From an uncultured archaeon (GTDB lineage Archaea > Asgardarchaeota > Thorarchaeia > Thorarchaeales > Thorarchaeaceae), in the NCBI GenBank assembly GCA_964590575.1, contig CAZPWM010000034.1:1-30729 (forward strand): a stretch of 30,729 nt of DNA, in the 5' to 3' direction. The notes under the pieces were generated by a model that ran no database searches, had not been told where the DNA came from, and worked only from the letters and a program-made list of their open reading frames with translations. The position numbers and the translations under genes are program-made. Below are positions 1,093 to 20,596 of the stretch, piece by piece (within the stretch, counting starts at the first letter, position 1; the number at the start of each line of letters is the position of its first letter).

Positions 1093-1150
1093 CTACCCCT
1101 CCTAGGAAAGATATAACTCGAACTGCGAACTCCATTGATTGGGTGACTGA

Positions 1151-1483
1151 ATGACCAAAGACAAGATACTGGCGATGCTTCAAACTCTCGGAGAACGTTT
1201 TGAGGACCCGAAAATCCAGCGCAGGTTCAAGGACTATAACAAGGCGCTTCAATTTATCTTTCCTGATATTGATGTCAAGATGTACATGAAAATCGGGGAT
1301 GCAGAGCTCCTTGAGGTAGCAGAGGGTGAAACTGAAGCAGAACTGCAAGTTACTATGGATTCACCCGTTTTCTTCGCAATCATAGAGAAGACTGAGAGTC
1401 CAATGGCGGCATATTCTGCTGGCAAACTCAAGACAAAAGGTGAAGTACCGGATCTATTGAAACTCCAGAAACTACTCTTGTGA
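1151..1483 (+). CDS. SCP2 sterol/lipid-binding domain protein
   Basis: 110 aa; C-terminal ESPMAAYSAGKLKTKGE..DLLKLQKL pattern typical of the SCP2 fold; GGGTGA SD before the ATG. Confidence 0.8.
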   Translation: MTKDKILAMLQTLGERFEDPKIQRRFKDYNKALQFIFPDIDVKMYMKIGDAELLEVAEGETEAELQVTMDSPVFFAIIEKTESPMAAYSAGKLKTKGEVPDLLKLQKLLL

Positions 1484-1822
1484 TTCAGATTCCTTATCAA
1501 CAACCATTGATACAAGCTCTCGCATTCGAACCATCTGACTCCTTACACGTTCTGCTCCTTCCTTGGTTAGAACTGCGAAAGTTGTAGGTTTGAGGTCAAC
1601 AAATCGTTTTGATATTCGAATCAGACCTAACTCTTCCAGCTTCCTTAGATGACTCGATAGATTTCCTGAGGTCAGACCAAGTTTCTTCTGAAGGACTGGA
1701 AATGTTGCATGTTGCGTGAAATATAGGTAGACGAGAACGGAGAGTCGTGTGGGGACCATGGTTTCACGGTCTTCTTCCATTAGTCCTACCAATGCTGATA
1801 GGAGGTCCCCATCGAGACTCAA
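1472..1822 (-). CDS. Winged-helix transcriptional regulator (HTH_34/ArsR-MarR-like)
   Basis: RLSVLVYL...LGLTSGNLSSHLRKLEELGLI...PTT..LTKEG pattern; TTG start 2 nt after the upstream stop. Confidence 0.88.
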   Translation of the reverse strand: MSLDGDLLSALVGLMEEDRETMVPTRLSVLVYLYFTQHATFPVLQKKLGLTSGNLSSHLRKLEELGLIRISKRFVDLKPTTFAVLTKEGAERVRSQMVRMRELVSMVVDKESESQE

Positions 1823-1824
1823 TT

Positions 1825-2502
1825 CTATCCCTGTCCTTTGCTCTCCAGAAGAAGTCGTTCAGCAGTGATAAGCATATAGATGCCAATAACGTAGATTCCG
1901 CCCATATCTGCGACTATCAGAAATATGTGTGCAATGTCCAGAAACATCATCATCGGGATAATACTAAGAAACACCACAATTGCAAAATAGAGGTGTTCAC
2001 GACCATAGAACTCAACATTGCCTCCTCTCCTTCCACCAATGTAGTTTAGTAGAAAACCTACTCCCATTATGAATTGAAGAGCAGGTGCGAACAAGACTCC
2101 ATTTCCTGTGGCGAATGTCACAATGGATAGTATGACGATCATAACTGCTATGATACCCCAGACCAAAAATGCAGCTCGACCTCCATCTTCATCAGAAGAT
2201 GTTTGCGGATATGACTGAGTTAGTGGTAATACTAGTCTAAATGCAACAGCCCAAGAGAAAACAAGACTAAGAACTACGAATCCAAGATTCACTAACAGAG
2301 GATTTCCTGGTCCAAAATAATTTTCAAGTGACATATAGATCAATGTCGTAAAAGATATTCCTCCAGCAATGATGAGATAGACCAATCCTGCAACTCTACG
2401 TGAAACGACTTGTGGATACTTATCAACGAGGTCGGTTAGCAGTAGAAGCTGTTTTGCTTTCTCAATCATTTCACCGTTTTTTTCCATTCCTTCAGGATTC
2501 AA
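1825..2502 (-). CDS. Hypothetical integral membrane protein (about 6 TM)
   Basis: Several hydrophobic segments; co-oriented with the wHTH gene; TTG start with a GGTGG SD. Confidence 0.75.
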   Translation of the reverse strand: MNPEGMEKNGEMIEKAKQLLLLTDLVDKYPQVVSRRVAGLVYLIIAGGISFTTLIYMSLENYFGPGNPLLVNLGFVVLSLVFSWAVAFRLVLPLTQSYPQTSSDEDGGRAAFLVWGIIAVMIVILSIVTFATGNGVLFAPALQFIMGVGFLLNYIGGRRGGNVEFYGREHLYFAIVVFLSIIPMMMFLDIAHIFLIVADMGGIYVIGIYMLITAERLLLESKGQG

Positions 2503-2552
2503 ACGACCACCTCTATTCTAAATGACAAATTCAACTTTGACAAACCCCCTTA

Positions 2553-2580
2553 ATAAAAGATGGAGTCCCGTGAGGGACCC
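2553..2580 (-). terminator. Hairpin and U-rich tract after the ABC permease
   Basis: GTCCC(2565-69)-GTGA-GGGAC(2574-78) directly after the minus-strand stop, followed by TCTTTTATT on the minus strand. Confidence 0.45.
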
Positions 2581-3741
2581 CTAACGATAACCGTATCTCT
2601 CGAAGAGAATAATTCCCACTGCAACAAGCAGGAACCCAACTACTGATACAACTGCCAAATCGAACCAGATTATAGGTGTGGTAATTGGTGCTCCTCTTAG
2701 GAACAGTGTTGTCAATGCATCAGTGATGTACTTGCTAGGCATGAACTTACCAATAATCTCGGTTGCTCCGCCCAAAGGCATGAATGTTCCAAAGAACATC
2801 TGTGGCATGATGAATGCGAAACTCACACCTGTTGAAACCTCAGCAGATTTGGAGATTGCCGCAGAAATTAGACCGAACCCAACGGCAACTAATGAGAATG
2901 CTAAAGCGATGATAAAGGTGAAAGCAATTCCTGCTGGTCCAGTTGCAGGTCTATAGCCTATCATGAACGCCGATGCCATAACAAGTGCAACTTGAATAAC
3001 TGCAATTATCATGTAGGTAAGAGTCTGACTGACCATGTAGTCTGCTGATGAAACTGGAGTTGTTCTCATTCTCTTCAAGAGCCCTTCATCTCGCTCATAT
3101 GTCATTGATTGTGCAACGATCATAGTCAGGAAAATTGCAGCAAAAGCAAAGATTCCAGGGGCCATAAAGTCCCATTGAGTAAAGGTACTCGATTCAACTA
3201 AGGCAGGGCTTCCAATCTCAATTGGCAGACCAATAGTCATTGCCTCGCTCCCAAATATGGTCTTCATCAGAACCTCCAATACAAGAGGCGGAACAGCTGA
3301 TACCGCCATTAGAGACCCACTATCAACATAGAGCCCAATAGTCGTGTTTGTCCAGGCGCTAGGATCGACGGGGGAACTATAATACGATACAATACTTTCT
3401 CCAAAACCTCCAGGAATAACAATGAATGCATCGAGGTCGCCTTGGAGAAGTGCTGATTGTCCAGTAGTATTATCATCATAGCCATGGATGACAAAGATAT
3501 CAGACTCAGTGAGATTGTCAACGAACGCAAAACTCCAATCAGCTTGAGGACTTGTAGCATCGAGATTAAGAAGTCCTACCTCAAAACTTGTTGTGGTTCC
3601 TCCTCCAATTCCGCCAAATGCAAGACCAAACACAAACGTCAACACAACGGGGAAAATTATCAGAAGAAAAAGGACAGCTGGTTCCCTATGTGTCTTCTTC
3701 AAATCCTTCTTCACTAATGCTAGTATTCGTCTTAGGTTCAT
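2581..3741 (-). CDS. ABC-2 type exporter permease
   Basis: N-terminal TM, large extracytoplasmic loop and 5 C-terminal TMs; FMAPGI and ERDEGLLKRMRTTPVS motifs. Confidence 0.92.
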   Translation of the reverse strand: MNLRRILALVKKDLKKTHREPAVLFLLIIFPVVLTFVFGLAFGGIGGGTTTSFEVGLLNLDATSPQADWSFAFVDNLTESDIFVIHGYDDNTTGQSALLQGDLDAFIVIPGGFGESIVSYYSSPVDPSAWTNTTIGLYVDSGSLMAVSAVPPLVLEVLMKTIFGSEAMTIGLPIEIGSPALVESSTFTQWDFMAPGIFAFAAIFLTMIVAQSMTYERDEGLLKRMRTTPVSSADYMVSQTLTYMIIAVIQVALVMASAFMIGYRPATGPAGIAFTFIIALAFSLVAVGFGLISAAISKSAEVSTGVSFAFIMPQMFFGTFMPLGGATEIIGKFMPSKYITDALTTLFLRGAPITTPIIWFDLAVVSVVGFLLVAVGIILFERYGYR

Positions 3742-3743
3742 CT

Positions 3744-4490
3744 CTAGACAGCCTCCCTCAGTTTCTTACCAGTGAGTTTCAGGAAGACTTCTTCCAGATT
3801 CCTAGTCTGATGTTTTTTCATCAAATCAGCAGGAGACCCAAGTGCAATTAGCTTACCTTCGTCAATGATGGCAACTCTGTCGCAGAGCTCCTGAGCTTCT
3901 TCCATGTAGTGTGTTGTGAGAATGATAGCCTTGCCTTGCTCTTTCAGCTCTCGAATAAAGTCCCAGACCGCCCGACGGGATTGTGGATCCATCGCAACAG
4001 TGGGCTCATCTAGTAGAGCTATCTTCGGGTCACTGATTAATGCCATTAGCATACTGACCTTTCTAATCATTCCCCCGCTGTATTCCTTAGCACGCCTGCG
4101 AATGTAGCCTTCCATGTCAATTCTCTCAACCATGGTTGTGACACGTTCCTTGAGGACATTCTTTGGCATGAGATACATCTCTCCCATGAGGGTGATGTTC
4201 TCTTCGCCTGTAAGATGCGGATAGAATGCAGGTTTCTGAGGACAAACACCAATTACCTCTCGAACCCCCTCTGGGTCAAAGATCACATCATGCCCATCGA
4301 TGGTCGCAGAACCTTCAGTTGGCTCTAGAAGGGTGTTGAGAATGTTGATGGTCGTACTCTTGCCTGCACCATTGGGTCCGAGGATACCAAATAGCTCACC
4401 CCAGCCAATCTCAAGACTGAGACTGTCGATGGCTGTTATATCACCGAACCTTTTTGTTAGATTAGTTATCGTAATCGCAGATTCAGACAT
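3744..4490 (-). CDS. ABC exporter ATP-binding protein (DrrA-like)
   Basis: Walker A GPNGAGKST, signature YSGGM, Walker B ALLDEPT, H-loop LTTHYMEEA. Confidence 0.95.
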   Translation of the reverse strand: MSESAITITNLTKRFGDITAIDSLSLEIGWGELFGILGPNGAGKSTTINILNTLLEPTEGSATIDGHDVIFDPEGVREVIGVCPQKPAFYPHLTGEENITLMGEMYLMPKNVLKERVTTMVERIDMEGYIRRRAKEYSGGMIRKVSMLMALISDPKIALLDEPTVAMDPQSRRAVWDFIRELKEQGKAIILTTHYMEEAQELCDRVAIIDEGKLIALGSPADLMKKHQTRNLEEVFLKLTGKKLREAV

Positions 4491-4519
4491 TGTAAATCAC
4501 GAGTATTCACATGCATAGA

Positions 4520-4645
4520 ATGAATATAAGGAGTGGACAATCTTTGAACTACATCGAGGTTTGCGCTACAAACTAGCCTACGTGGCAATAATTCGCCGAA
4601 TCTTTAAAGGGCCGTGACAATACTGGACACATCTGAAATTGGAGG
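4520..4645. promoter_or_regulatory. Divergent promoter region
   Basis: TATA-like TTTAAAG near 4603 preceded by CCGAA on +; CTTATATT on - near 4523-4530; GGAGG SD at 4641-4645. Confidence 0.4.
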
Positions 4646-4654
4646 TTTTACTTA

Positions 4655-5653
4655 TTGCGAGTTCTCATCACAGCTCCCTTCACTGAGACTGGTCTAAAAG
4701 AACTACAAGATGCAGGCCTCAAGGTTGACTATCATAGCTGGCTAGAAACAGGAAAGCTGCACATGGGGGAGTCTTTGCTTCAAACCATTAAGGATGGTAA
4801 CTATGAAATTGTCATTGTAGAGGGTGATGAGATAAAGGAGGAGATCATTGAGCAGACTGAGTTGAAGCTAATTGGATCAGTAAGAGGGTCTCCCAATAAC
4901 ATATCACTCCAAGCAGCAACTGCCAAGAAAATTCCAGTCATTGCTGTGCCTGGAAGAAATACTATTGCGGTAGCTGAACACACAATTGCTTTGATTTTGG
5001 CTCAGGCAAGGAACATTGTGGCTGCGGAACGTTTTCTCAAGAACGACTTCTTTGTTGATGATTTCAAAGACTTTGCGAACATGTACACCAGTCTCATTGG
5101 ATTCGAGCTCTTTGGACGAACTGTGGGAATCATCGGACTCGGTCAGATTGGATTTGAGGTGGCCAAGCGTTTGCAGTCTTTTGGTGTAGAGATACTTGTC
5201 CTGGATCCATACGCTGACTCCAACAAAATCAAAGACGTGGGTGCAAGAATCGTTGAGCTTGATGAACTGCTGAAAAACTCAGATATAGTCACCCTACATT
5301 GTCCATCCACTGAAGAAACTCAGGGAATGTTGGGTGCTAAGGAGTTTGAGAAAATGAAGAAGACTGCAATCCTGATTAACACTGCAAGAGCATCAATAAC
5401 TGATGAATACGCCCTTCTTGCTGCATTGAAGAACGGTACCATCGCGGGTGCAGGTTTAGATGTCTTCTCTATGGAGCCTGTTGACAGTGATAATGAATTT
5501 CTTGAGATTGACAATGTAACAGTGATGCCCCATATGGGTGGAAACACGGTTGAAACTGTGCAACGCCAGTCAGAGAACATTGTAGCTGGCATCCTAGCTT
5601 TCCTTAAAGGTGAGAAACCCCCGAACATCTTGAATCCAGAAGTCTTCAATTAG
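4655..5653 (+). CDS. D-isomer-specific 2-hydroxyacid dehydrogenase, YoaD-like
   Basis: GIIGLGQIG NAD motif; catalytic R (NTARA), E (DVFSMEP) and H (PHMGG). N-terminal VLITAPF..G.KEL...DYHSW and RGSPNN..PGRN..AVAE resemble B. subtilis YoaD as I recall it. Confidence 0.9.
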   Translation: MRVLITAPFTETGLKELQDAGLKVDYHSWLETGKLHMGESLLQTIKDGNYEIVIVEGDEIKEEIIEQTELKLIGSVRGSPNNISLQAATAKKIPVIAVPGRNTIAVAEHTIALILAQARNIVAAERFLKNDFFVDDFKDFANMYTSLIGFELFGRTVGIIGLGQIGFEVAKRLQSFGVEILVLDPYADSNKIKDVGARIVELDELLKNSDIVTLHCPSTEETQGMLGAKEFEKMKKTAILINTARASITDEYALLAALKNGTIAGAGLDVFSMEPVDSDNEFLEIDNVTVMPHMGGNTVETVQRQSENIVAGILAFLKGEKPPNILNPEVFN

Positions 5654-5657
5654 GGGA

Positions 5658-7163
5658 ATGACAATGGTAGTAGCCGCGATTGACGCAGGTACGACTGGCG
5701 TAAGGTGCATGATTGTAGACCGTAAAGGAAAGACTCCGGGCACATCCAGAACTTCATGGGATTATTCTACACCCCCTGGTCTAGAGATAGCTAAGGAGTT
5801 CAACCCATCAGAGTTCTGGAAACTTGTTTGTTCGGTTATCAAAGGAGCGATCAAGAATTCAGGGATTGAGACTTCTGACCTAAAAGCTGTAGCAACAACC
5901 AGTCAACGACACGGGCTTGTCTTACTTGACTCCAACGGGAATGAGCTTCATGGTGGCCCGAATATCGATGCACGTGGTGCAATGACCCAATATCTCATCG
6001 ATGAATCTCTTGGCGAAACCTACCATGAGATTACTGGTTGTTGGCCCCCGTTGATGTTTGCACCATCCCGACTTGCTTGGTTCGAGGAAGAGGACCCTGA
6101 GCTTTACGGAAAAATAGCACAAATCCTCCCTCTCTGTGATTGGATAACATTCAGACTCTCAGGAATGTACGTGACAGACTCCTCATCCGCAAGCGCAACT
6201 GGATTTCTTGATGTCAGGACCAACAAATGGAGTGAAGAAGTAGCATCAGCTCTTAACATAGATTTGAGTATTCTACCTGAGATCCGCAAGGTTGGTGAAG
6301 TGATAGGTGAGGTGACATCTGAATCTGAAAAGGAATGTGGTCTACCAAAGGGCCTCCCGGTCGTTCAGGGTGGTGCTGATACACACTGCGCTCTTCTTGC
6401 GAGTGAATCTAAAGTGGATGAAATCACTGTCATAGCAGGAAGCACCGCTCCTGTAATGATGATTCTCGATTATCATCTCTGCGTTCCTGACCAGAAAATC
6501 TGGACTGGGACTAACATGAAAGAAGGTCAATGGGTTCTCGAGAGCAATGCGACCTTGACTGGAGCCGTCTTAGAGTGGGCTGTACGCCTTCTCTGTGAAC
6601 GGTCTGAGGAGCCTATGAAATGCAGAAAGAAAACGTTTGAAAATCTAGATGAATTGGTTAGAGGAATTCCCCCCGGAAGCGATGAAACTTTTGTCACTCT
6701 TGGCCCGAGTATAATGGACTGTCAGCAAATCACAGATGTGAAACAGGCACAGATGATATTCCCACAGCCCGCTTTACCTCAGGTTAACCCCCTTGACTCT
6801 TCAAGAATGATTCATGCTATTCTTGAGAACGTGGCTTTTGCAGTCCGTGGAAACGTTGAACAGCTCGAAGTATACAACCAATCAAGTGCTGTGAAAACAA
6901 TTGGTGGAATGAGTCAATCTGAAACATGGCCACAACTCCTGGCTAATGTTCTGAACAGACCAATTACTACTCCCGTTCAGTCTGAGGGGAGTCTGTTAGG
7001 TGCTGCAATCTGTGCTGCAACAGGTGCTGGTTATCACAAATCGATTGATGAAGCCGCAAAATCAATGGTCCGTTGGAGACCCACCTATCAACCTGATGAC
7101 CGCGCAGAACTTTATGACCGATACTTTTCAAAATGGAACGAGATAAGATGCAACGGTGACTGA
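5658..7163 (+). CDS. FGGY-family carbohydrate kinase, YoaC/autoinducer-2-kinase-like subgroup
   Basis: IDAGTTG, TSQRHGLVLLD, PNIDARG (instead of the WxDxR of xylulose/glycerol kinases), GGADT, GGMSQS and GAAICA motifs. Confidence 0.9.
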   Translation: MTMVVAAIDAGTTGVRCMIVDRKGKTPGTSRTSWDYSTPPGLEIAKEFNPSEFWKLVCSVIKGAIKNSGIETSDLKAVATTSQRHGLVLLDSNGNELHGGPNIDARGAMTQYLIDESLGETYHEITGCWPPLMFAPSRLAWFEEEDPELYGKIAQILPLCDWITFRLSGMYVTDSSSASATGFLDVRTNKWSEEVASALNIDLSILPEIRKVGEVIGEVTSESEKECGLPKGLPVVQGGADTHCALLASESKVDEITVIAGSTAPVMMILDYHLCVPDQKIWTGTNMKEGQWVLESNATLTGAVLEWAVRLLCERSEEPMKCRKKTFENLDELVRGIPPGSDETFVTLGPSIMDCQQITDVKQAQMIFPQPALPQVNPLDSSRMIHAILENVAFAVRGNVEQLEVYNQSSAVKTIGGMSQSETWPQLLANVLNRPITTPVQSEGSLLGAAICAATGAGYHKSIDEAAKSMVRWRPTYQPDDRAELYDRYFSKWNEIRCNGD

Positions 7164-7800
7164 AATGTATGAGAAAGAGAAGAAAGAATTACTTGACATT
7201 TGTCTGGAGATGATCAAACACAACCTAGTTATTGGGTCCTCTGGGAATGCAAGTCTTAGAGTTGGAGATCATGTTGTCATTTCTCCAAGTTCTGTTCATT
7301 ATGCAGAGATGACAGTTGATGATGTTGTTGTTATTGACATGAAGGGTGACGAGGTTGAAGGTACTAGGAATCCAAGTGTTGAAACACCAATGCATCTAGA
7401 GATTTACCACAACAGGGAGGACGCTCTTGCTGTAGTTCATACCCATAGTATTTGCGCCTCTGCTATGGCTATCCTTCATGAACCTCTGCCCCCGATACTT
7501 GATGAGATTGTCCCCAAACTTGGCGCTGGGATAAGAGTTAGTAAATACGCTATGCCTGGTACAAAACAGCTGGGGAAAAACGTGGTCGAAGTTCTTGAAG
7601 AAAGAAGTGCAGCACTAATAGCAAACCATGGCGCTGTATGTCTGGCAAAGACCCTGAAGGATGCACTCTTTCTCTCAATCCTCCTAGAACGTGCCTGCAA
7701 GATCTACATGACTGCAAAACAAGTTGGCAAACCAATAGAACTTCCTGAGGACGTCGTACTCGACGAACAGGATATCTGGGAAATGATGAAAGACTTCTAA
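7156..7800 (+). CDS. Class II aldolase/adducin family protein (L-fuculose-phosphate aldolase-like)
   Basis: SSGNAS, SPS, PSVETPMH (catalytic Glu), HTHS and NHG metal ligands; overlaps the kinase stop. Confidence 0.93.
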   Translation: MTEMYEKEKKELLDICLEMIKHNLVIGSSGNASLRVGDHVVISPSSVHYAEMTVDDVVVIDMKGDEVEGTRNPSVETPMHLEIYHNREDALAVVHTHSICASAMAILHEPLPPILDEIVPKLGAGIRVSKYAMPGTKQLGKNVVEVLEERSAALIANHGAVCLAKTLKDALFLSILLERACKIYMTAKQVGKPIELPEDVVLDEQDIWEMMKDF

Positions 7801-7810
7801 GGGTGATGAA

Positions 7811-9592
7811 ATGCCAGGATACATGGGTCAAATACTAGTTGTGGACTTATCAAATAGGGAAATGAGTACACTTGATATTGATCCCACAAAATCTGCTCTG
7901 TTTCTTGGTGGAAGCGGATATGCAGCAAGACTTCTTTACGAGCACCTCGATTCAGACGTTGACCCTCTCGGTCCAGACAATATACTGCTTTTCATGACCG
8001 GTCCATTGACTGGGACACTTGCCCCATGTACTGGACGTCATGTTGTCTGTGGAAAATCACCACTCACAAACCTCTGGGGTGAGTCTCATGTAGGTGGACA
8101 CTTTGGAGCTTTTCTGAAGTTCTCAGGATATGATGGAATCCTAATCAAGGGGCGATCAGAGAAACCAGTTACTTTGTATGTTGATAATGAAAAGCCTCAG
8201 CTTCTCTCTGCGGAAGACCTGTGGGGCAAAATGACTGGACCAACACAAGACTCATTGAAAGCCAGACTTGGACGGGTACAGATTTGCTGCATCGGTCCAG
8301 CTGGTGAGAATCTAGTAAAGTTTGCAAGTATAGTCACTGATGAACGGGTTTCAGCAAGATGCGGTCTTGGGGCTGTTATGGGGTCTAAGAACCTCAAAGC
8401 TATTGCAGTTGGAGGCAGAAACCGTGTGCCCTTACACACTCCTGAGGAATTTCGTGAGTTGGCACAATCATCGAGAAAGATAGTTGGTGAAGCGATGACT
8501 ATGCTCACCGACCAAGGTACTGCTATGTATGTCGATATTGGTATGATGTTCAATGACGTGCCAATCAAATACTTCCAGGAGATAAAGTTTGAAGACGCTG
8601 ATCTAATTAATGCAAAATCAATGGAGGAGATTCTCACGGGTCGCTCTGCTTGTTACTCATGTCCGATAGGTTGCGGACGAAAGGTAACGATTCCAGAGTA
8701 CGAGTTGGTTGACGTAGGAGGTCCTGAGTATCAGACAATTGCATCATTTGGATCCAACCTATTGATTTCCGATTTAAAGAAAATAGCACTCATGAACAAT
8801 CTGTGCAATCAATATGGCATGGACACAATCAGTTGTGGTAGTACCATTGCTTTTGCGACTCATCTATGTGATATTGGGAAAGCAGATTATGGGTTCACTT
8901 GGAACAACCCTGAACAGGTCATTAACACGCTCCACGAAATAGCAAAAAGAGAAGGTATTGGTGACATACTAGCCGAGGGCTCTGTTTCGGTTGCTAGAAG
9001 ACACTCTGCAGAGGATATTGTGCTTCATGTTAGAGGAATGGAGATTCCAAATCATGACCCTCGAGCATTCTCCGGGATGACAACTGTCTACACCATAGCT
9101 TCTAGGGGAGCAACCCATATGGAAGGTGACATGTATAGTGTGGATGTCGGTGTAGAATGGAGAGAATTGGGAATTATATCCGGAGACCGCCTGGAGAATG
9201 ATGGCAAGGGAATGATTGCAGCAAGAGCTCAGGACTTCAGAGCATTCTTCGATTCGGTAATAATGTGTCATTTTGCCATTGTTCCTCCTAAAACAATCGT
9301 TGAGCTACTGAACCTCGCAATTGGGTCATCATACCAACTTGAAGACATCTTGGAGATAGGTGCTCGTGCAGTTACCATGAAACGGCTCTTCAATCTGAAA
9401 TGTGGTCTAAAGACTGAAGATGAGAAACTTCCTGCACCATTATTGATACCTCATGCTGAAAGTGTCACAGATGACTTTGTCCCTGATGTCGATGCTCAGT
9501 TAGATGAATACTACGACTACAGGAAATGGGATAGAAAAACAGGTCGCCCTTCTGATGAAGCATTCAAAGAATTAGGATTATCCGATCTCTAG
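7811..9592 (+). CDS. aor: Aldehyde:ferredoxin oxidoreductase family (W/Mo-pterin, 4Fe-4S)
   Basis: KSPLT..WGES, RCGLGAVMGSKNLKAI, CYSCPIGC, GPEYQT, DTISCG, RGATH and IMCHF motifs. Confidence 0.94.
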   Translation: MPGYMGQILVVDLSNREMSTLDIDPTKSALFLGGSGYAARLLYEHLDSDVDPLGPDNILLFMTGPLTGTLAPCTGRHVVCGKSPLTNLWGESHVGGHFGAFLKFSGYDGILIKGRSEKPVTLYVDNEKPQLLSAEDLWGKMTGPTQDSLKARLGRVQICCIGPAGENLVKFASIVTDERVSARCGLGAVMGSKNLKAIAVGGRNRVPLHTPEEFRELAQSSRKIVGEAMTMLTDQGTAMYVDIGMMFNDVPIKYFQEIKFEDADLINAKSMEEILTGRSACYSCPIGCGRKVTIPEYELVDVGGPEYQTIASFGSNLLISDLKKIALMNNLCNQYGMDTISCGSTIAFATHLCDIGKADYGFTWNNPEQVINTLHEIAKREGIGDILAEGSVSVARRHSAEDIVLHVRGMEIPNHDPRAFSGMTTVYTIASRGATHMEGDMYSVDVGVEWRELGIISGDRLENDGKGMIAARAQDFRAFFDSVIMCHFAIVPPKTIVELLNLAIGSSYQLEDILEIGARAVTMKRLFNLKCGLKTEDEKLPAPLLIPHAESVTDDFVPDVDAQLDEYYDYRKWDRKTGRPSDEAFKELGLSDL

Positions 9593-9637
9593 TTCCTCAT
9601 CCGTTAGTTTATTTCGTATGTTTTCACGAACCAGATA

Positions 9638-10576
9638 TTGGTGGTAGCAATTCAGACAATCGAAGCTCTGATTTCACAGATAGTCCTTTTCTATGGGTTC
9701 ATTGTTACTGGCTATCTGATCGCCCGATTATCTGGAAGGGGACAAATAGTCAACAAGTATCTTAACTCACTCCTCATCAATATCCTCGTTCCAATTCTTT
9801 TCTTCCATGCTCTTCTAACTTCAACCCCTTCTTCTTTGGTGGAAATTCCCATCTTTCTCGTGATTGCAATTGCCATTCATCTTATTGGACCTGCATTGAT
9901 TTATCTCAGACTTCGAAGCGTAGAGATCAATTACCAAACCAAAGGGTCTCTCTACATCACCTCAACCTTCACTAACGCCCTATTCGTACCTCTTCCACTA
10001 GCCCTGATGCTCTTAGGTCCAGCTGCAGTACCCTTTGTGGTTATGTTCTCGCTTACACAGATGATTCTTCTTGTTACATTAGGGTCTGTTATGGGCGCAA
10101 CTTTTGGTGGAAAAGAGGCTGGTTGGAAAAAGATAGCTAAAGATGCAGTCATATTCCCTCCATTTCTAGCTGCAATACTATCCATTGTCCTTCTGGGACT
10201 CAACATAGGACTTCCACCAGATGTGGCTACGATACTCTCCTACAACTCCCCCCTCACAACATATCTAGCACTTGTTTCGGTAGGTCTGGGTGTTGGAGTT
10301 AGGTTCTCTCTAACTGATGTAAGAACAGCTTTCAATGTTGTTGCAATACGTCAGCTGATTCTTCCTTTTCTCGTTCTACCGATTATCCTCTTCTCAACCC
10401 TTTCACAAATTCCTCTCCAGGTACTCATTTTGGAATCTCTCATGCCTCCTGCTATTTTGACCGTTGTCTACGCCTCTGGATTTGATCTAGATGTTGAAAT
10501 TGCTTCAACAACCGTCACAGTGGGGACACTCCTACTACTACCATTAATCCCAATCCTTCCATTTGTCTTAGGATAG
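9638..10576 (+). CDS. AEC (auxin efflux carrier / malate permease) family transporter
   Basis: About 10 TMs in two repeats; FTNALFVPLPLA, FPPFLAA and ESLMPPA motifs. Confidence 0.85.
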   Translation: MVVAIQTIEALISQIVLFYGFIVTGYLIARLSGRGQIVNKYLNSLLINILVPILFFHALLTSTPSSLVEIPIFLVIAIAIHLIGPALIYLRLRSVEINYQTKGSLYITSTFTNALFVPLPLALMLLGPAAVPFVVMFSLTQMILLVTLGSVMGATFGGKEAGWKKIAKDAVIFPPFLAAILSIVLLGLNIGLPPDVATILSYNSPLTTYLALVSVGLGVGVRFSLTDVRTAFNVVAIRQLILPFLVLPIILFSTLSQIPLQVLILESLMPPAILTVVYASGFDLDVEIASTTVTVGTLLLLPLIPILPFVLG

Positions 10577-10633
10577 TCATTTATTGCGTAAACTGAACGC
10601 ATATATCGAAAACAGCCACATGAACGAATAACG

Positions 10634-10963
10634 GTGAGCAACTTGAGCAAGCGTGAATCCGAGGAGTCCAAAAATCCAGAGGCCATAAAGAAATCACTTG
10701 ATGACGTAGTCCAGAAACTCGATCAAGATATTGATGCAAGTAAGAGTTGGAGTAGCTCGATCACAGCAAACAAAGAGGAATGGGAGAATCTGAAAAAGAA
10801 GATACACGACCGTCAGAAAGCACTGAAACAACTTGTAAGTGATAAAAGGGCTGGAATAATTGGGGCGGATGAGTTCGAAGCCAAGTACAAGATTCTCCAA
10901 GACGAATTGACCGAATTGGAGTTCGCTGTGTATAATATGCGACTTGGTACAAAGGTTCAATGA
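10634..10963 (+). CDS. Hypothetical coiled-coil protein with a SHOCT-like C-terminal motif
   Basis: Charged helical sequence; AGIIGADEFEAKYKIL. Confidence 0.65.
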   Translation: MSNLSKRESEESKNPEAIKKSLDDVVQKLDQDIDASKSWSSSITANKEEWENLKKKIHDRQKALKQLVSDKRAGIIGADEFEAKYKILQDELTELEFAVYNMRLGTKVQ

Positions 10964-10970
10964 GGCACTT

Positions 10971-12032
10971 TTATGTATCCACTCGAGCACGCAGAATCAA
11001 GAGTACTGACTCAATGGCGACGAAAACTCCAAGAACAACTGTCATTGCCATCAAACCAATGTTAACAGTATTATCCGTTGTATTTCCTGATCTTCCGTCT
11101 AATCCTGAAACCAGGGCTCCCAAGTTGTAACTCATCATCCAGAAGTAATCCGCTTCTGGAAAGTAGACTGTCCGCCACCAGATTAGAACACCTCCATAAT
11201 CTGCTTGAATTTGGTACGCAAATTGTCCACCAGCTTGGAACTGAGCAACATCAGAACCAATGATTAGATCAATACTCCCATTACGAATTGCTTGCTGAAC
11301 CTCCAACAGTTTAGGAGCAGAGATGGTAATTTCCTCAATTTGAAGGACCGCGTCACTTGTAATTCCAAACGCTTCCGCAACATATGCTTCAGCAGGAGCC
11401 ACCACTACTGCATGCATCTCAGAAAAACTATACATGTCGTCAAAGGAATCGATTAACTCTTGAAGTTCATTAATGGATTCCACAAACATCTCGAAATTCA
11501 AAGTCCATTCATTAGCCAGAGTGCTGTTGAGCGTGCTCAGCGCTGCACGAGTAGCATTGGCGATTGCTAATGCGTTCTTAGGAAGTAACCAGAATCCGTG
11601 TGGGTTCCCTTCATGTTCATCTCCCTCTTCTATGTCGCCTCCAGGCATCGGGGAATACTCTGCACCATATGCCTCGTAATCCTCCAATGCATTATCATCA
11701 TGGAATGAAATGAATGGTGTTGAAGTCAGATTAGCTAGTTCTTGCTCCCAGTGAAAATGTCCTGTAAAGACCAGTAAATCTGCCGCATCTGCAATAGCAA
11801 TGATTTCAGGAGACACTGTGAATGTATGAGGATCTGTTTCCCGATCCAATAAGACTGTAACATTATAGTATGGGCTTCCTGCTTCCTGAACAATTCCTGC
11901 TAGAGCTGATACCGAAACTACGATTCTTCCTGTAGGAAGAATCTGCGCGTGTACTTCTAGTGTTATCCCACTCATAGCAAGTGGCAGTAAAAACAACAAC
12001 AGCGGGACCAAGGACACTTTTCTCCGAAGCAC
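10971..12032 (-). CDS. znuA: Metal ABC transporter substrate-binding protein (ZnuA/TroA cluster A-I), C-terminally membrane-anchored
   Basis: Signal peptide; DPHTF and NPHGFWLLP motifs; acidic/His loop EEGDEHEG; C-terminal TM; AGGAG SD before the GTG. Confidence 0.85.
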   Translation of the reverse strand: MLRRKVSLVPLLLFLLPLAMSGITLEVHAQILPTGRIVVSVSALAGIVQEAGSPYYNVTVLLDRETDPHTFTVSPEIIAIADAADLLVFTGHFHWEQELANLTSTPFISFHDDNALEDYEAYGAEYSPMPGGDIEEGDEHEGNPHGFWLLPKNALAIANATRAALSTLNSTLANEWTLNFEMFVESINELQELIDSFDDMYSFSEMHAVVVAPAEAYVAEAFGITSDAVLQIEEITISAPKLLEVQQAIRNGSIDLIIGSDVAQFQAGGQFAYQIQADYGGVLIWWRTVYFPEADYFWMMSYNLGALVSGLDGRSGNTTDNTVNIGLMAMTVVLGVFVAIESVLLILRARVDT

Positions 12033-12111
12033 AGTAATATCTCCTAAATATCATCTAGCCAAATCCTTAATAATAATTTTGAAATAGTTACTAATTAACG
12101 AATTGTCTTGA

Positions 12112-12525
12112 GTGTTAAAAATGCCGTTTGAACCCATTGCTGTTTCCATGACAGAGTCGGATCTTGAGGAATTAGAGTTTCTCCTGAAAGAGGGTGGATT
12201 CTCAAATCGGTCAGATGTGGTCCGCCATGCTGTCAAAGCGCTGATGTCGGAGCATCGTAATGTTGAGAATGCGAAGGGAGTAATAACCGCTGTATTCACA
12301 GCGCTCTACTACAAGAAAGGGCATGGTCAAAACATCAGCGCAGTTCAACATGAGTTTAAGGATACTATTACGGCAACCATCCACTCACATACCAGCGATG
12401 GCAGATGTGTAGAAGTAATGATTTTGACTGCAAAGGCCGATATTGTACGCGATTTTCTCAAGAAACTTCGGGCACAAAAAAAAGTCCTGAAGATTGAGGT
12501 CAGTCTAATAGGAGGGCGCACTTAA
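12112..12525 (+). CDS. nikR: NikR/CopG-family ribbon-helix-helix metal-responsive regulator (start possibly 12121)
   Basis: RHH IAVSM...GGFSNRSDVVRHA; metal-binding domain QHEF..TIHSH.....CVEV with the three-His, one-Cys ligand set. Confidence 0.85.
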   Translation: MLKMPFEPIAVSMTESDLEELEFLLKEGGFSNRSDVVRHAVKALMSEHRNVENAKGVITAVFTALYYKKGHGQNISAVQHEFKDTITATIHSHTSDGRCVEVMILTAKADIVRDFLKKLRAQKKVLKIEVSLIGGRT

Positions 12526-13328
12526 TGGCTGCAGTCCCATTACTAGAAGCGTCTAATCTCGCAGTTCGTTATCCCAATGGTGCGATAGCACTCCATGATG
12601 TTTCCTTTCTTGTAGAATCTCCAAGCTTCATGGCAATCATTGGTCCAAATGGTTCGGGAAAATCCACATTGGTCAAGACTTTTCTGGGACTCATCAAACC
12701 ATTCAAGGGGAGTATCAGAGTCAACGGTTACGATTCAGTGAAAAAAACAGGAAAGATTAGGAAACTGGTTAGATATGTGCCTCAACGAGACCGGATAGAA
12801 CTTTCAGTACCAATGAAAGTGAAAGATATAGTCCTAATGGGTCGCCTTCTCAAGAAACTTCCGCCAAGGTTTGCTTCTTCAAAAGATATCAAAATAGCAA
12901 AAGATGCGCTAGAGCAAGTGGATCTGGCTGAATTATGGAATCATCCTTTTCCAGAACTCTCAGGAGGCCAAAGGCAGAGAGTCCTAGTCGCCAGAGCACT
13001 GGCCAGTGATGGGTCTATCTTGGTCCTTGATGAACCTCTTGCTGGTACAGATGTGGAGAGTCAGGACCTAATTGTAGAAGCACTTGGTAAGTATCACAAA
13101 GAGAATGATGTTAGTATAATAATGGTCACGCATGATCTCAACCCAATTCACACATTGGTTCAAGATGTTCTGCTTCTGAAGAATACGGTAATCGGAATTG
13201 GTGAGCCCTGTTCAATAATGGATCCTGAGCTGATGAAGAAAGTCTATGGTCCAACTGCAAGGATTGTAGAGCATTCAGGACATCGTTACTGTATGACCCA
13301 TGATTCAGGAATTGATCGTCATGATTGA
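12525..13328 (+). CDS. znuC: Metal ABC transporter ATPase (ZnuC/MntA-like)
   Basis: GPNGSGKST, YVPQ, LSGGQRQRV, VLDEP and VTHDL motifs; His/Cys-rich C-terminus. Confidence 0.9.
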   Translation: MAAVPLLEASNLAVRYPNGAIALHDVSFLVESPSFMAIIGPNGSGKSTLVKTFLGLIKPFKGSIRVNGYDSVKKTGKIRKLVRYVPQRDRIELSVPMKVKDIVLMGRLLKKLPPRFASSKDIKIAKDALEQVDLAELWNHPFPELSGGQRQRVLVARALASDGSILVLDEPLAGTDVESQDLIVEALGKYHKENDVSIIMVTHDLNPIHTLVQDVLLLKNTVIGIGEPCSIMDPELMKKVYGPTARIVEHSGHRYCMTHDSGIDRHD

Positions 13329-14265
13329 AATATTGCAGTTAATCCTTGACAGTCCATTCCTTCAGCGCGCCATCATTGCTGCAGTGCTGATAGCTATTAT
13401 CGCAGCGGCTAGTGGAACATTTCTTGTCTTTCGTGGACTCTCCTTTATGGCATCTGGTGTAGCACATGCTGCCCTAGGTGGAACTGCCTTGGGTATCTTC
13501 CTACAGGACTCTGGTCTCGTTCCTTGGTTTGATCCAGTACTAGGGGCTCTTTTGTTTAGTGTGCTAGTAGCTGTCTTCACTGGCTATGCTGGTGAATCGG
13601 GAATCGCACAAAAAATGGAAGTAGCTGTGGGAGTTTCTTTTGCTCTCTCAATGAGTCTTGCAGTGTTTCTGATGTACTATATACCACCATACCGCATACC
13701 CCAAATATGGGGTTACCTAATCGGCGATATTCTACTATTGAACAATTTTGACGTCATTATGCTAGCGAGTACTGCGGCTCTACTAGGATTTATCACTCTG
13801 ATGTTCAACAAGGAGTTTGTATACGTCAGTGTTGATATGGAGGGCTCAATCGCACATGGGATGAATGCACGTGCATATCACTACCTAATGCTCGTTGTTT
13901 CAGCTCTTGCTATCGCCATTGCCACGAAGGCGGTGGGAGCTATACTTGTCTATGCGATAATGGTTGCTCCTGCAGCCGCATCCAATGAACTAGTAAAATC
14001 AGTTCGTGGAGTAATTCTCTCTGTGTTCTTTATTGCCCTCATAGCAGAATTTGTAGGTTTAGCAATATCGTTTGCAGTCTTTGTTTCCCCAAGTGCAATT
14101 GCAGGCATTCTAGCCGCTCTCTCATATCTACTAGCCCTCCAAATAAAGCGAGTCCGTGAGAGAGTTCATGTAGAAATTGATGATATACAACCGAAGTCCG
14201 GAGATTTAGAGGAAGTCTTTGAACAAGCAACCGTTCATGAGCACAAAAAAGATCATGAACATTGA
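13321..14265 (+). CDS. znuB: Metal ABC transporter permease (ABC-3, ZnuB-like); probable start 13321
   Basis: FLQRA...GTFLVFRGLSFMASGVAHAALGG, YLIGDIL and VGAILV..MVAPAA motifs; His-rich tail. Confidence 0.92.
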   Translation: MIEILQLILDSPFLQRAIIAAVLIAIIAAASGTFLVFRGLSFMASGVAHAALGGTALGIFLQDSGLVPWFDPVLGALLFSVLVAVFTGYAGESGIAQKMEVAVGVSFALSMSLAVFLMYYIPPYRIPQIWGYLIGDILLLNNFDVIMLASTAALLGFITLMFNKEFVYVSVDMEGSIAHGMNARAYHYLMLVVSALAIAIATKAVGAILVYAIMVAPAAASNELVKSVRGVILSVFFIALIAEFVGLAISFAVFVSPSAIAGILAALSYLLALQIKRVRERVHVEIDDIQPKSGDLEEVFEQATVHEHKKDHEH

Positions 14266-15842: not shown

Positions 15843-15856
15843 GAGTTGACCTACAA

Positions 15857-16588: not shown

Positions 16589-16649
16589 GCATGAATGAAG
16601 GATAAGTAATCAAAAGATTAGAAATATTACAAAATGAGGGAATAAATTA

Positions 16650-20324: not shown

Positions 20325-20325
20325 G

Positions 20326-20586: not shown

Positions 20587-20596
20587 TACAGACCAA

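Follow-up and report, generated by a model that had tools for sequence, protein, structure and literature searches.

The window (the whole 30,729-nucleotide stretch of DNA analysed here) belongs to a Thorarchaeota-like Asgard archaeon and contains five co-directional genes predicted to encode a D-2-hydroxyacid-dehydrogenase-family oxidoreductase (DH), an FGGY kinase, a class II aldolase (ALD), an aldehyde:ferredoxin oxidoreductase (AOR) and an AEC-family permease (Table 1). The open reading frames confirmed the positions and spacing given in an earlier note on this DNA: from DH to the permease, successive genes lie 4 nt apart, overlap by 8 nt, and are then spaced by 10 nt and by 45 nt. The database copy of the kinase (P0001) has 499 aa, so translation may begin at the third codon, which would widen the DH-kinase gap to 10 nt. 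Pfam and NCBIfam profiles bore out the gene families that the note had named, the Pfam matches of all five genes exceeding the gathering cut-offs, and the motifs that it had quoted are found in the translations (RVLITAPFTETGLKELQ...YHSW and RGSPNN in DH; TSQRHGLVLLDSNGNELHGGPNIDARG in the kinase). An SCP2-family gene lies 3.2 kb upstream of DH, with four opposite-strand genes in between that include those of an ABC-2 type transporter running divergent from the module. Neither Pfam nor NCBIfam gave a match for the membrane protein in this interval, and Pfam gave none for the charged protein downstream of the permease gene.

Table 1. Genes and candidate expression signals of the module and its surroundings in the window.
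Feature	Position	Strand	Length	Remarks
SCP2-family carrier protein	1151-1483	+	110 aa	Pfam SCP2 37.5 bits (cut-off 21.3)
Winged-helix (HTH_34/MarR-like) regulator	1472-1822	-		Pfam HTH_34 67.5 bits
Membrane protein, ~6 hydrophobic segments	1825-2502	-	225 aa	Hydropathy scan
ABC-2 type transporter permease	2581-3741	-		Pfam ABC2_membrane_3 104.9 bits
DrrA-like ATPase of ABC-2 type transporter	3744-4490	-		Pfam ABC_tran 104.7 bits; NCBIfam drrA 288 bits (cut-off 312)
Candidate expression signal TTTAAA	4603-4608	+		Upstream of DH; sequence reading
Candidate expression signal GGAGG	4641-4645	+		9 nt ahead of the TTG start of DH; sequence reading
D-2-hydroxyacid-dehydrogenase-family oxidoreductase (DH)	4655-5653	+	332 aa	TTG start
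LsrK-like FGGY kinase	5658-7163	+	501 aa (or 499 aa)	
FucA/DrdA-like class II (metal-dependent) aldolase (ALD)	7156-7800	+	214 aa	
Tungsten-type aldehyde:ferredoxin oxidoreductase (AOR)	7811-9592	+	593 aa	
AEC-family (Mem_trans) permease	9638-10576	+	312 aa	Pfam Mem_trans 71.4 bits
Charged protein, probably coiled-coil	10634-10963	+	109 aa	Sequence inspection

The DH, kinase and ALD genes adjoin one another in 20/20 Asgard loci fetched, the kinases of which are 30-80% identical to that of the window. Wider linkage was counted in loci with at least 3 kb of flanking DNA on both sides (28 archaeal, 20 bacterial). The archaeal loci contained DH and ALD in 28/28 cases, and AOR and SCP2 in 25/28 cases each. 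DH was present in 19/20 of the bacterial loci, ALD in 13/20, AOR in 4/20 and SCP2 in 1/20, and the complete triad in 12/20. The linkage of DH, kinase and ALD far exceeds chance. AOR adjoins the module in Thermoplasmata (L099), Bacillota (L103, L124) and Chloroflexota (L122, L126), an Fe-ADH occupies the corresponding position in locus L097, and the order DH then kinase is repeated in Bacillota relatives of the window kinase. Absence of this linkage elsewhere would have spoken against the earlier proposal; instead, the linkage is conserved, AOR included, in distant archaea, Bacillota and Chloroflexota. A literature search did not find a published description of the module. We conclude that the gene set is a genuine unit that is conserved and apparently undescribed.

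Several neighbours are restricted to close relatives. The AEC permease does adjoin AOR in the window, as had been pointed out, but elsewhere it is found only in close kin (5/20 Asgard loci; 21/28 archaeal loci, all Thor-like; 0/20 bacterial loci), and the ABC-2 permease (cluster 7) occurs in 5/20 Asgard loci. These two transporters are lineage-limited accessories that may move substrate or product, and the ABC-2 transporter possibly exports a lipophilic compound. The HTH_34/MarR-like regulator (cluster 14; close kin L035-L037 only) and the 225-aa membrane protein (cluster 13; close kin only) belong to an insertion at genus level that separates SCP2 from DH, and the regulator is probably not core to the module. 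The 109-aa protein (cluster 5) accompanies the AEC gene in close kin (6/20 loci plus the window).

The earlier list of parts was correct for the four enzyme genes but overlooked a core partner, SCP2, and a bacterial fusion of four domains. The SCP2 gene is a core part of the module: its orthologues adjoin the triad in 14/20 Asgard loci by clustering and in 15/20 by HMM, and it abuts DH directly in other genera (L038, L043, L044). A hydropathy scan found no transmembrane-like or hydrophobic segment in the window's SCP2 protein, consistent with a soluble carrier. An HMM derived from the Asgard SCP2 sequences matched 128/128 fused bacterial proteins at a position between DH and ALD. Among 14 long representatives scanned, six carried kinase, DH, SCP2 and aldolase in one chain and others were kinase-DH or kinase-aldolase proteins; the four domain sets were carried by all of the listed relatives of P0174, which number at least 120. 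Named four-domain carriers include Mycobacterium kansasii, M. persicum, M. simiae and Myxococcota, and locus L054 contains a single DH-ALD frame of 564 aa. The four-domain proteins of M. kansasii, Myxococcota and others (~1270-1480 aa; ~1280 aa in Mycobacterium and Myxococcota) comprise the same four families as the window module, with kinase domains 28-34% identical to the window kinase. Their fused order is kinase-DH-SCP2-aldolase, whereas the window has separate genes in the order SCP2 ... DH-kinase-aldolase. These proteins are almost certainly the same module as that of the window, and our literature search did not find a paper on them. With the SCP2 partner and the bacterial fusion taken into account, a molecule with a hydrophobic part becomes a likelier substrate than the free SAM-derived pentose suggested in the earlier note.

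The kinase matched Pfam FGGY_N (156.7 bits) and FGGY_C (67.5 bits), and its NCBIfam scores were 272 bits for LsrK (cut-off 528), 219 for XylB, 142 for GlpK and 117 for FucK. Among solved structures LsrK (5ya0) was the best match at 203.5 bits, followed by glycerol kinase at 121.8 bits. In the kinase tree, the module kinases shared an unresolved polytomy with E. coli LsrK and were separated from E. coli XylB, FucK, RhaB and AraB, so that assignment as a xylulo-, fuculo- or rhamnulokinase was rejected. Grouping with the common sugar kinases, which would also have told against the earlier proposal, was thus not seen. Judged by sequence the kinase is LsrK-like, and LsrK phosphorylates a terminal CH2OH adjoining a CHOH. 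This autoinducer-2 (AI-2) kinase is the nearest characterised kinase by profile, solved sequence and look-alike search, a language-model search having returned AI-2 kinase clusters with a score of 0.98, and several orthologues carry the JGI name AI-2 kinase. Together with the polytomy, these matches are what would be expected if the protein were a true LsrK whose neighbours replaced LsrG and LsrF in the disposal of phospho-DPD. However, its score is about half of the curated LsrK cut-off, the annotated ORFs of the window lack the LsrACDB-type importer, LsrG and LsrF of the E. coli lsr locus, and the partners that are present are entirely different. As such a role would also not account for SCP2 or for a separate dehydrogenase alongside a DHAP-type aldolase, we regard AI-2 processing as very improbable.

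DH is a short SerA/glyoxylate-reductase-like protein. Its Pfam scores were 203.6 bits for 2-Hacid_dh_C and 68.1 for 2-Hacid_dh, and in NCBIfam it scored 259 bits against PGDH (cut-off 454) and 243 against glyoxylate reductase (cut-off 455). Among solved structures it came nearest to 1wwk (201.9 bits) and to 5aov (194.3 bits). It contains R245, E274 and H293, and an alignment of 43 module DHs showed that E56, R77, R101, N102 and H293 are invariant in all 43. The residues corresponding to R77, R101 and N102 in 1wwk are Gly, Ala and Ser. The proximity to phosphoglycerate dehydrogenase and glyoxylate reductase, combined with these three module-invariant residues, favours an anionic (phosphate) substrate for DH. 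To our knowledge, D-2-hydroxyacid dehydrogenases act on 2-hydroxy acids and not on polyol phosphates, so the oxidation of a polyol phosphate that we propose below would be without direct precedent in the family.

The FucA-type assignment of ALD in the earlier note agrees with its Pfam match (Aldolase_II, 174.8 bits) and with its scores against the solved structures of FucA (4c25, 122.8 bits) and DrdA (6btd, 119.8 bits). Residues G30, N31, S74, E76, H95, H97 and H158 are invariant in 43/43 sequences; alignment with FucA predicts that G30, N31 and S74 form the phosphate site, that E76 is catalytic and that H95, H97 and H158 are metal ligands. By these comparisons the catalytic residues are intact. 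In place of FucA Tyr113, ALD has Asp/Glu (D116 is acidic in 37/43 sequences and E117 in 39/43), no NCBIfam cut-off was reached, and the best partial NCBIfam match, at 170 bits (cut-off 251), was a subfamily named as an epimerase. These three features leave room, as far as the sequence goes, for an epimerase or decarboxylase reaction.

AOR matched AFOR_N (252.1 bits) and AFOR_C (349.6 bits), and scored 359.6 bits against the solved Pyrococcus furiosus AOR (1aor; P. furiosus). In the AOR tree, 16/17 module-adjacent AORs and one paralogue from the window's genome formed a clade (SH-aLRT 96) that leaves out 6/7 other paralogues placed on the tree. The paralogue within the clade belongs to a second cluster of the same genome, on C12, with the composition SCP2-FabK-like-Fe-ADH-AOR.

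An alternative is a tetronate-like route for a sugar acid, in which DH would oxidise a 2-hydroxy acid, the kinase would phosphorylate the far end, ALD would be an OtnC-like decarboxylase or AraD-like epimerase, and AOR would be only loosely associated. The D-2-hydroxyacid dehydrogenase family normally uses 2-hydroxy acids. The E. coli ygbJKLM genes follow such a dehydrogenase-kinase-class II decarboxylase logic (annotation and the available text of PMC12994016), and the epimerase-named match, an OtnC score of 105 bits (cut-off 250) and the loss of Tyr113 fit this route. However, the OtnC score is well under the FucA and Ru1P-aldolase scores of ALD, the FucA Glu is invariant in ALD where AraD has Asp, and by E. 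coli annotation the pathway kinase YgbK is not an FGGY protein. Moreover, an OtnI-type isomerase was not conserved beside the triad among the neighbour clusters of the loci examined, and the recurrence of AOR or an alcohol dehydrogenase next to ALD in distant lineages, together with the clade formed by the module AORs, indicates an aldehyde product. We therefore consider this route unlikely.

Our best reading, to which we assign a probability of roughly 55%, is that these genes constitute a conserved catabolic module of five working parts (SCP2, kinase, DH, ALD and AOR) acting in the order kinase, DH, DHAP-releasing ALD and AOR on a probably amphiphilic substrate. The substrate would end in several hydroxylated carbons, and the kinase would phosphorylate its terminal CH2OH. 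DH would then oxidise the secondary alcohol beside the phosphate ester, so that the remaining molecule would carry a DHAP unit as its 1-phospho-2-ketose head; these two steps possibly occur in reverse order. Because the ketone would arise by oxidation, an isomerase would be unnecessary. A retro-aldol cut by ALD would release DHAP into glycolysis together with an aldehyde, which AOR would oxidise to the acid while reducing ferredoxin. In bacteria the SCP2 domain is fused between DH and ALD. SCP2 most likely binds some hydrophobic portion of the substrate or of the aldehyde product, and the substrate in the archaeon of the window is therefore probably amphiphilic and possibly lipid-tailed. In four Dehalococcoidia loci, which represent one related group, the module directly follows the hopanoid synthesis genes SHC, HpnH-like and HpnG-like; this setting, the membership of the carrier in the SCP2 family and the SCP2/AOR cluster on C12 all favour a hydrophobic cargo. 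Weighing against our reading are the 3.2 kb and four opposite-strand genes that part SCP2 from DH in the window, and the lack of SHC and HpnG matches in the window's genome.

The hopanoid setting would also suit the opposite direction, in which AOR would use reduced ferredoxin to convert a carboxylic acid to an aldehyde, ALD would condense the aldehyde, perhaps presented by SCP2 as a fatty aldehyde, with DHAP, and DH would reduce the ketone to build a polyol head on a lipid or a rare sugar, with the kinase recycling dephosphorylated intermediates. According to the available text of PMC6079011, the aldol reactions catalysed by such enzymes can run in both directions, with condensation favoured. 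However, DHAP would itself bring the phosphate, leaving the kinase without an obvious role even though it is the most constant part of the module. In addition, the window's genome gave no match to SHC or HpnG, and the Bacillota contexts are mostly catabolic in style. An anabolic function is thus quite unlikely.

The catabolic contexts in Bacillota and Anaerolineae consist of sugar-type or PnrA-like (nucleoside-type) ABC importers, ECF transporters, GntR/SorC regulators, amidohydrolases and alcohol dehydrogenases, and SCP2 was not found beside the loci examined. At least these versions of the module therefore probably use a soluble substrate. Broadening the earlier idea, the module as a whole might degrade a small soluble polyol or deoxy-sugar (such as ribitol, erythritol, or a SAM-derived pentose or pentitol of the 5-deoxy or 5-methylthio kind), with ALD producing DHAP and acetaldehyde, methylthioacetaldehyde or glycolaldehyde, AOR oxidising the aldehyde, and SCP2 serving as a scaffold or being unrelated to substrate binding. 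ALD is about as near to DrdA as to FucA, and DrdA cleaves 5-deoxyribulose-1-P to DHAP and acetaldehyde (available text of PMC6079011; structure 6btd). The window's genome encodes MtnA (352 bits, above the cut-off) and MTAP (275.6 bits, cut-off 274.85), and ALD is its sole class II aldolase, making an MTAP-MtnA-aldolase DHAP shunt possible. However, the LsrK-like FGGY kinase and DH, the most constant partners, have no role in the DHAP shunt as described, and the retention of SCP2 in archaeal loci and its fusion in bacteria would be left unexplained. The annotated ORFs of the window also include no sugar importer. A soluble substrate for the module in general is thus a tentative alternative. B. 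subtilis YoaD-YoaC, which we take to consist of a 2-hydroxyacid dehydrogenase and then an FGGY kinase, would share the gene order of the window and had suggested the SAM link. The available text of PMC2885750 on YoaDC speculates on cysteine degradation. No SAM riboswitch was found in the window or in the 8 bacterial module loci scanned out of 35, and a SAM-derived substrate has little in its favour. What stands of the earlier interpretation is the conserved undescribed unit, the grouping of the kinase away from common sugar kinases and the FucA-type aldolase, but not the SAM link or a parts list lacking SCP2.

The proposed catabolic module shares its logic with L-fucose and L-rhamnose catabolism in E. 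coli (FucK-FucA-FucO/AldA; RhaB-RhaD), in which an FGGY kinase works with a metal-dependent class II aldolase from the Pfam family of ALD to produce DHAP and an aldehyde, the latter being oxidised or reduced in turn, and FucA shares its metal ligands and catalytic Glu with ALD. In contrast to these pathways, the module lacks an isomerase, has a D-2-hydroxyacid-family dehydrogenase as its constant third partner, uses a kinase that groups apart from FucK and RhaB, and adds a tungsten AOR for the aldehyde and an SCP2 carrier; ALD also has Asp/Glu in place of Tyr113 and does not reach the FucA model cut-offs. In the Brucella erythritol pathway the FGGY kinase EryA acts first on the polyol and the EryB dehydrogenase then produces a ketose phosphate, which is the order proposed for the module, although EryB is a dehydrogenase of another (flavin) family and the subsequent steps are catalysed by isomerases, not by an aldolase. 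The tetronate (threonate/erythronate) pathway (LtnD/OtnI/OtnK/OtnC; E. coli ygbJKLM), as described in the available text of PMC12994016, resembles the module in leading to DHAP by way of a dehydrogenase, a kinase and an enzyme of the class II aldolase fold, but its dehydrogenase and kinase are of other families, it requires an isomerase and its final step is a decarboxylation. In the DHAP shunt for 5-deoxyribose disposal (DrdK-DrdI-DrdA), the available text of PMC6079011 describes an MtnK-type kinase or phosphorylase and an MtnA-type isomerase, in place of which the module has an LsrK-like FGGY kinase and a dehydrogenase, with SCP2 and AOR in addition. The overall logic is nevertheless the same, in that a class II aldolase, DrdA being among the solved structures closest to ALD, frees DHAP from a 5-substituted pentulose-1-phosphate, with a substituted acetaldehyde as the other product.

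The four tightly coupled genes and the following AEC transporter reported in the earlier note are an exact match to the ORF table, with spacings of +4, −8, +10 and +45 nt along a single unit of five same-strand frames. The families proposed for them also agree with Pfam, namely D-2-hydroxyacid dehydrogenase (DH), FGGY kinase, class II aldolase, aldehyde:ferredoxin oxidoreductase (AOR) and Mem_trans (AEC), and the motif strings quoted for the DH and the kinase are found in the translations. This gene set nevertheless missed a core partner, a protein of the SCP2 lipid-carrier family encoded upstream, as well as bacterial proteins in which several of the activities are fused. We refer to SCP2, DH, kinase, aldolase and AOR as the module and to DH, kinase and aldolase as the triad.

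Coordinates of features in the window, in other contigs of the same genome (C) and in loci of relatives (L)
Feature	Position	Strand	Evidence or remark
Haem catalase, C-terminal two thirds	2-1027	+	Catalase 402 bits; cut by contig start
SCP2-family protein, ~110 aa	1151-1483		Pfam SCP2 37.5 bits, cut-off 21.3; neighbour clustering
Winged-helix regulator, 6-segment membrane protein, ABC-2 permease and its ATPase		opposite	four genes between SCP2 and DH
TTTAAA box	4603-4608		ahead of first gene; read from sequence
GGAGG	4641-4645		ahead of first gene, start codon TTG; read from sequence
DH	4655-5653	+	ORF table
Kinase	5658-7163	+	ORF table
Class II aldolase	7156-7800	+	ORF table
AOR	7811-9592	+	ORF table
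AEC permease	9638-10576	+	ORF table
Metal uptake unit: ZnuA-family binding protein, NikR-like regulator, ABC ATPase, ABC-3 permease	10971-14265	− (ZnuA-family gene)	adjoins module in close kin only
Archaeal gene row: proteasome alpha, SBDS, Rrp4, Rrp41, Rrp42, L37ae, prefoldin beta, DUF3194	15096-21341	+	
PHP-domain protein, SCP2 (140 aa), NMO/FabK-like flavoprotein, Fe-ADH, AOR	C12 (L140) 4558-9917	−	tight row
FGGY kinase	C45 9946-11445	−	LsrK model 303.8 bits
MtnA	C6 14072-15058		352 bits
MTAP	C182 702-1421		275.6 bits, just above cut-off
Second SCP2 gene	L040 11932-12279	opposite	just after AOR
Second SCP2 gene	L043 10142-10459	opposite	just after AOR
Second SCP2 gene	L044 11925-12263	opposite	just after AOR

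The linkage, on whose conservation elsewhere the earlier note had staked its pathway, extends well beyond this genome. With a threshold of E <= 1e-60, kinase relatives were found in 133 of the 301 Asgard genomes sampled, and the source names of the orthologues include Candidatus Thorarchaeota, Sifarchaeia and Promethearchaeota. These names place the window among the Asgard archaea, and its gene row from proteasome alpha to DUF3194 confirms that it is archaeal. When about 17 kb around the kinase was inspected in 20 of these Asgard genomes (kinase identity 30-80%), the triad was adjacent in all 20, with AOR in 14 and AEC in five. A second set comprised 79 loci, at least eight contigs of which are shared with the first, and counts were restricted to loci flanked by 3 kb or more on each side. 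Among the 28 archaeal loci that qualified, DH and aldolase were present in 28, AOR and SCP2 in 25 and AEC in 21; the corresponding values for the 20 bacterial loci were DH 19, aldolase 13, AOR 4, SCP2 1 and AEC 0. The complete DH-kinase-aldolase-AOR row recurs in distant lineages, in one Thermoplasmata archaeon (L099), two Bacillota (L103 and L124) and two Chloroflexota (L122 and L126). Overall, Thermoplasmata, Chloroflexota, Bacillota and Binatia also have the module, and mycobacteria and Myxococcota encode it as one giant enzyme. Three kinase orthologues in other genomes (G112:C33, G152:C15 and G081:C45) carry one in-frame stop each (TAG, TAG and TGA, respectively) within an otherwise full-length match; errors of assembly, pseudogenes or recoding could account for these stops.

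Clustering of neighbours placed the SCP2 protein beside the module in 14 of the 20 Asgard loci as well as in the window; further matches to an HMM made from these proteins come from L054 (a locus of one Asgard family), Thermoplasmata and a single Chloroflexota locus. The SCP2 gene directly abuts the DH gene in several Thor genera, and in the genus studied here four opposite-strand genes part the two. Chance adjacency was ruled out, as the genome has seven SCP2 genes in 3.4 Mb, against conserved adjacency in 25 of 28 loci. In many Thor loci AOR is immediately followed, on the other strand, by a second SCP2 gene of greater divergence; the window has the upstream copy only.

Fusions provide a further view of the same association. 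An exhaustive search of representative proteins with the kinase returned long proteins of 745-1481 aa, 14 of which were scanned for domains: six were kinase-DH-SCP2-aldolase, one was kinase-DH-SCP2, four were kinase-DH, one was kinase-aldolase and two were partial or odd. In L054, DH and aldolase form one 564-aa frame. With one fused protein as query, at least 120 full-length relatives were retrieved, all of those listed having the four domain sets; they include Mycobacterium kansasii, M. persicum, M. simiae, Myxococcota, Deltaproteobacteria and Acidoferrales. In 128 of 128 fused proteins, the domain that separates DH from aldolase is matched by the Asgard SCP2 HMM. The two longest bacterial fusions (P0193 and P0305) contain two SCP2 domains, mirroring the second, post-AOR SCP2 gene of many Thor loci. 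Because the four proteins are fused in one lineage and are conserved neighbours in another, there is strong evidence that kinase, DH, SCP2 and aldolase would act on one substrate, and the SCP2 partner argues that this substrate or the aldehyde derived from it is probably hydrophobic. The M. tuberculosis genes Rv0727c, Rv0728c and Rv0729 may be an unfused version of the triad. A literature search found no paper naming two of these three genes together, and among the papers listed for single genes none looks functional.

The genome to which the window belongs (91% complete) encodes four FGGY kinases and five 2-hydroxyacid dehydrogenases, and has AOR-like matches on 12 contigs, the window's included. 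In contrast to these multicopy families, the class II aldolase is single copy. DNA data sets containing window positions 1100-10600 are salt-marsh, aquatic and sediment metagenomes, and no RNA sets were listed.

The kinase belongs to the FGGY family, both domains scoring above gathering (FGGY_N 156.7 bits, cut-off 28.8; FGGY_C 67.5, cut-off 27). Its best profile match is the LsrK model NF008187, at 272.2 bits below the curated equivalog cut-off of 528. The best solved sequence is also LsrK (203.5 bits, the next being 121.8), and look-alikes in the ESM Atlas are AI-2 kinase clusters only. The cut-offs for XylB (218.8 bits against 380), GlpK (142.2 against 590) and FucK (117.2 against 471) were not reached. 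In a 35-row tree with long branches, obtained by a quick search with GlpK left out, E. coli XylB, FucK and RhaB formed a group with two further kinases from the genome, separate from the module kinases (SH-aLRT 90), and LsrK fell in an unresolved polytomy with the module kinases. Clustering with xylulo- or fuculokinases, which would have spoken against the earlier proposal, was thus not observed. Compared with a reference lsr locus, the window ORFs scanned contain no Lsr transporter, LsrF or LsrG. The kinase is best described as a putative LsrK-like enzyme and not as a demonstrated LsrK, because the best matches go together with a sub-cut-off score, an unresolved polytomy and long branches. 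Another FGGY kinase of the genome, on contig C45, scores higher with the LsrK model than the window's kinase and groups with XylB in the tree.

The DH has both Pfam domains of the D-2-hydroxyacid family together with its Arg-Glu-His catalytic set, R245, E274 and H293. Over the 43 module DHs aligned, H293 is present in 43, R245 in 35 and E274 in 32. The closest relatives are 1wwk, a short phosphoglycerate dehydrogenase from Pyrococcus, and glyoxylate reductases of archaea; cut-offs for SerA and glyoxylate reductase were not reached (TIGR01327, 259.2 bits against 454; NF009714, 243.3 against 455). Four residues, E56, R77, R101 and N102, are invariant in all 43, and 1wwk has other residues at these places. 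We infer from this pattern that the extra invariant arginines may bind an anionic group, for instance a phosphate ester. A housekeeping SerA role for the DH was ruled out by the conserved linkage and the fusions, the genome having four other members of the family.

Among solved sequences, S. pneumoniae FucA and 6btd come closest to the aldolase. When E. coli FucA, RhaD, AraD and YgbL and 43 module aldolases were compared, G30, N31, S74, E76, H95, H97 and H158 proved invariant in all 43 and aligned with FucA residues. By analogy with FucA, we take G30, N31 and S74 to form the phosphate site, E76 to be catalytic and H95, H97 and H158 to be metal ligands, so that the three His ligands, catalytic Glu and phosphate-site residues of a DHAP-dependent, FucA-like aldolase are all present. 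AraD differs in having Asp at the position of E76. The protein is not FucA proper: NF005302 gave 158.9 bits (cut-off 264), TIGR01086 gave 121.9 (cut-off 400) and Tyr113 is absent. In the alignment, D116-E117 take the place of FucA's His-Tyr113, in which the Tyr comes from the neighbouring subunit; the two positions are acidic in 37 and 39 of the 43 sequences, respectively. Nor does the protein reach the cut-offs for AraD (NF005123, 170.2 bits against 251; TIGR00760, 91.5 against 389) or for the 3-oxo-tetronate 4-phosphate decarboxylase OtnC (NF043034, 104.9 against 250), and no isomerase, the expected OtnI partner, is conserved beside the triad among the clustered neighbours. Judged by its residues and profile scores, the aldolase is predicted to be a subfamily of its own that has kept the chemistry of an aldolase. 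PMC6079011, a paper on the 5-deoxyribose aldolase DrdA, contains the code 6BTD and gives Glu76 of DrdA as the proton-transfer residue. PMC12994016 concerns a different route, with a dehydrogenase, a kinase and a decarboxylase.

The earlier note had proposed that a SAM-derived pentose is phosphorylated and cleaved by the FucA-type aldolase to DHAP and an aldehyde, which AOR then oxidizes, by analogy with the B. subtilis yoaDC genes of the S-box regulon, whose products its DH and kinase may resemble. What survives from this proposal is a real and conserved, apparently undescribed route that would yield DHAP and have AOR as its outlet. The SAM and S-box part found no support: searches at gathering scores covering the window and eight of 35 bacterial loci gave no match to a SAM riboswitch or to any other Rfam family. 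The single passage on yoaDC that we found, in PMC2885750, is speculative. A narrower form of the idea is that methylthio- or 5-deoxy-ribulose-1-phosphate from a DHAP shunt may end at the window's aldolase. The genome encodes MtnA and MTAP and has neither a second class II aldolase nor an MtnB-like gene, as this role would have it, but the idea leaves the kinase, the DH and SCP2 unexplained.

The window's AOR has both family domains (AFOR_N 252.1 bits, AFOR_C 349.6 bits; Pfam) and is matched over its full length by P. furiosus AOR 1aor (359.6 bits, residues 3-592); it is a predicted tungsten aldehyde:ferredoxin oxidoreductase. When 17 module-adjacent AORs were placed on a tree together with eight paralogues from the same genome, 16 of the 17 formed one clade with a single paralogue, that of contig C12 (SH-aLRT 96); six of the other seven paralogues fell outside it and the seventh was the outgroup, which is thin, being drawn from own-genome paralogues only. 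On C12 this AOR gene belongs to a tight row that also contains an SCP2 gene. NfnAB-like genes flank the module in one Asgard family, and one Bacillota locus has an iron alcohol dehydrogenase after the aldolase; both fit an output of aldehyde and reducing equivalents. The catalase at the contig start is notable in a genome that otherwise has many oxygen-sensitive tungsten AORs.

The simplest scheme in which every constant part has a role, and which needs no isomerase, has four steps. The kinase would phosphorylate the terminal position of the substrate. The DH would then oxidize the secondary alcohol next to the phosphorylated end, much as a SerA-like enzyme oxidizes beside CH2-O-phosphate. Retro-aldol cleavage by the aldolase would give DHAP and an aldehyde, and AOR would oxidize the aldehyde with reduction of ferredoxin.

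As to the substrate, we considered the possibility, to which we give a chance of about one in eight, that the module supplies the missing enzymes that cleave the ribitol-like polyol tail of bacteriohopanepolyols, or the tail of another lipid ending in four hydroxylated carbons. SCP2 would lift the lipid from the membrane, the kinase would phosphorylate the terminal C35 hydroxyl and the DH would oxidize C34; the aldolase would then release DHAP and a C32 hopanoid aldehyde, which AOR would convert to C32 hopanoic acid. Three observations point this way: the SCP2 partner, the second SCP2-AOR cluster in the genome and four related Dehalococcoidia loci (L106, L117, L119 and part of L110). In these loci DH-kinase-aldolase directly follows hopanoid genes, in a row of polyprenyl synthase, FMN-dependent dehydrogenase (Pfam FMN_dh, possibly IDI-2), HpnH-like radical SAM enzyme, HpnG-like phosphorylase, HpnA-like epimerase and squalene-hopene cyclase (SHC). 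This context suggests the hopanoid polyol tail as one candidate substrate. A 123-aa protein with HMG-CoA_red_N/CGDB-like matches adjoins the aldolase in the same loci. No match to SHC or HpnG was found in the window's own genome, and therefore a hopanoid substrate would need an outside source.

The Bacillota and Anaerolineae versions have a different setting, beside sugar-type and PnrA-like ABC importers, ECF transporters and GntR/SorC regulators, with amidohydrolases and zinc and iron alcohol dehydrogenases nearby and no SCP2 detectable in their loci. These versions probably take a soluble substrate, and the module family may therefore have several specificities.

C32 hopanoic acid is a dominant hopanoid acid of sediments, and we know of no explanation for its biological origin. 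If the hopanoid substrate is correct, Asgard archaea of sediments, along with many bacteria, would gain three carbons from each hopanoid and would shape a major geochemical biomarker pool; any polyol-tailed lipid as substrate would mean a new oxygen-free way of degrading membrane lipids. Whatever the substrate, its assignment would give hundreds to thousands of genes an annotation in one stroke and would provide models of Asgard metabolism with one more source of carbon and energy. The literature searched, partly at title level and including passages of PMC11291895, yielded no published function or description of the module. Routes in which a kinase and an aldolase free DHAP from a sugar are textbook biochemistry. 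These routes use an isomerase, whereas the module has a dehydrogenase in its place, adds a lipid-carrier protein and, through AOR, would couple the aldehyde to ferredoxin.
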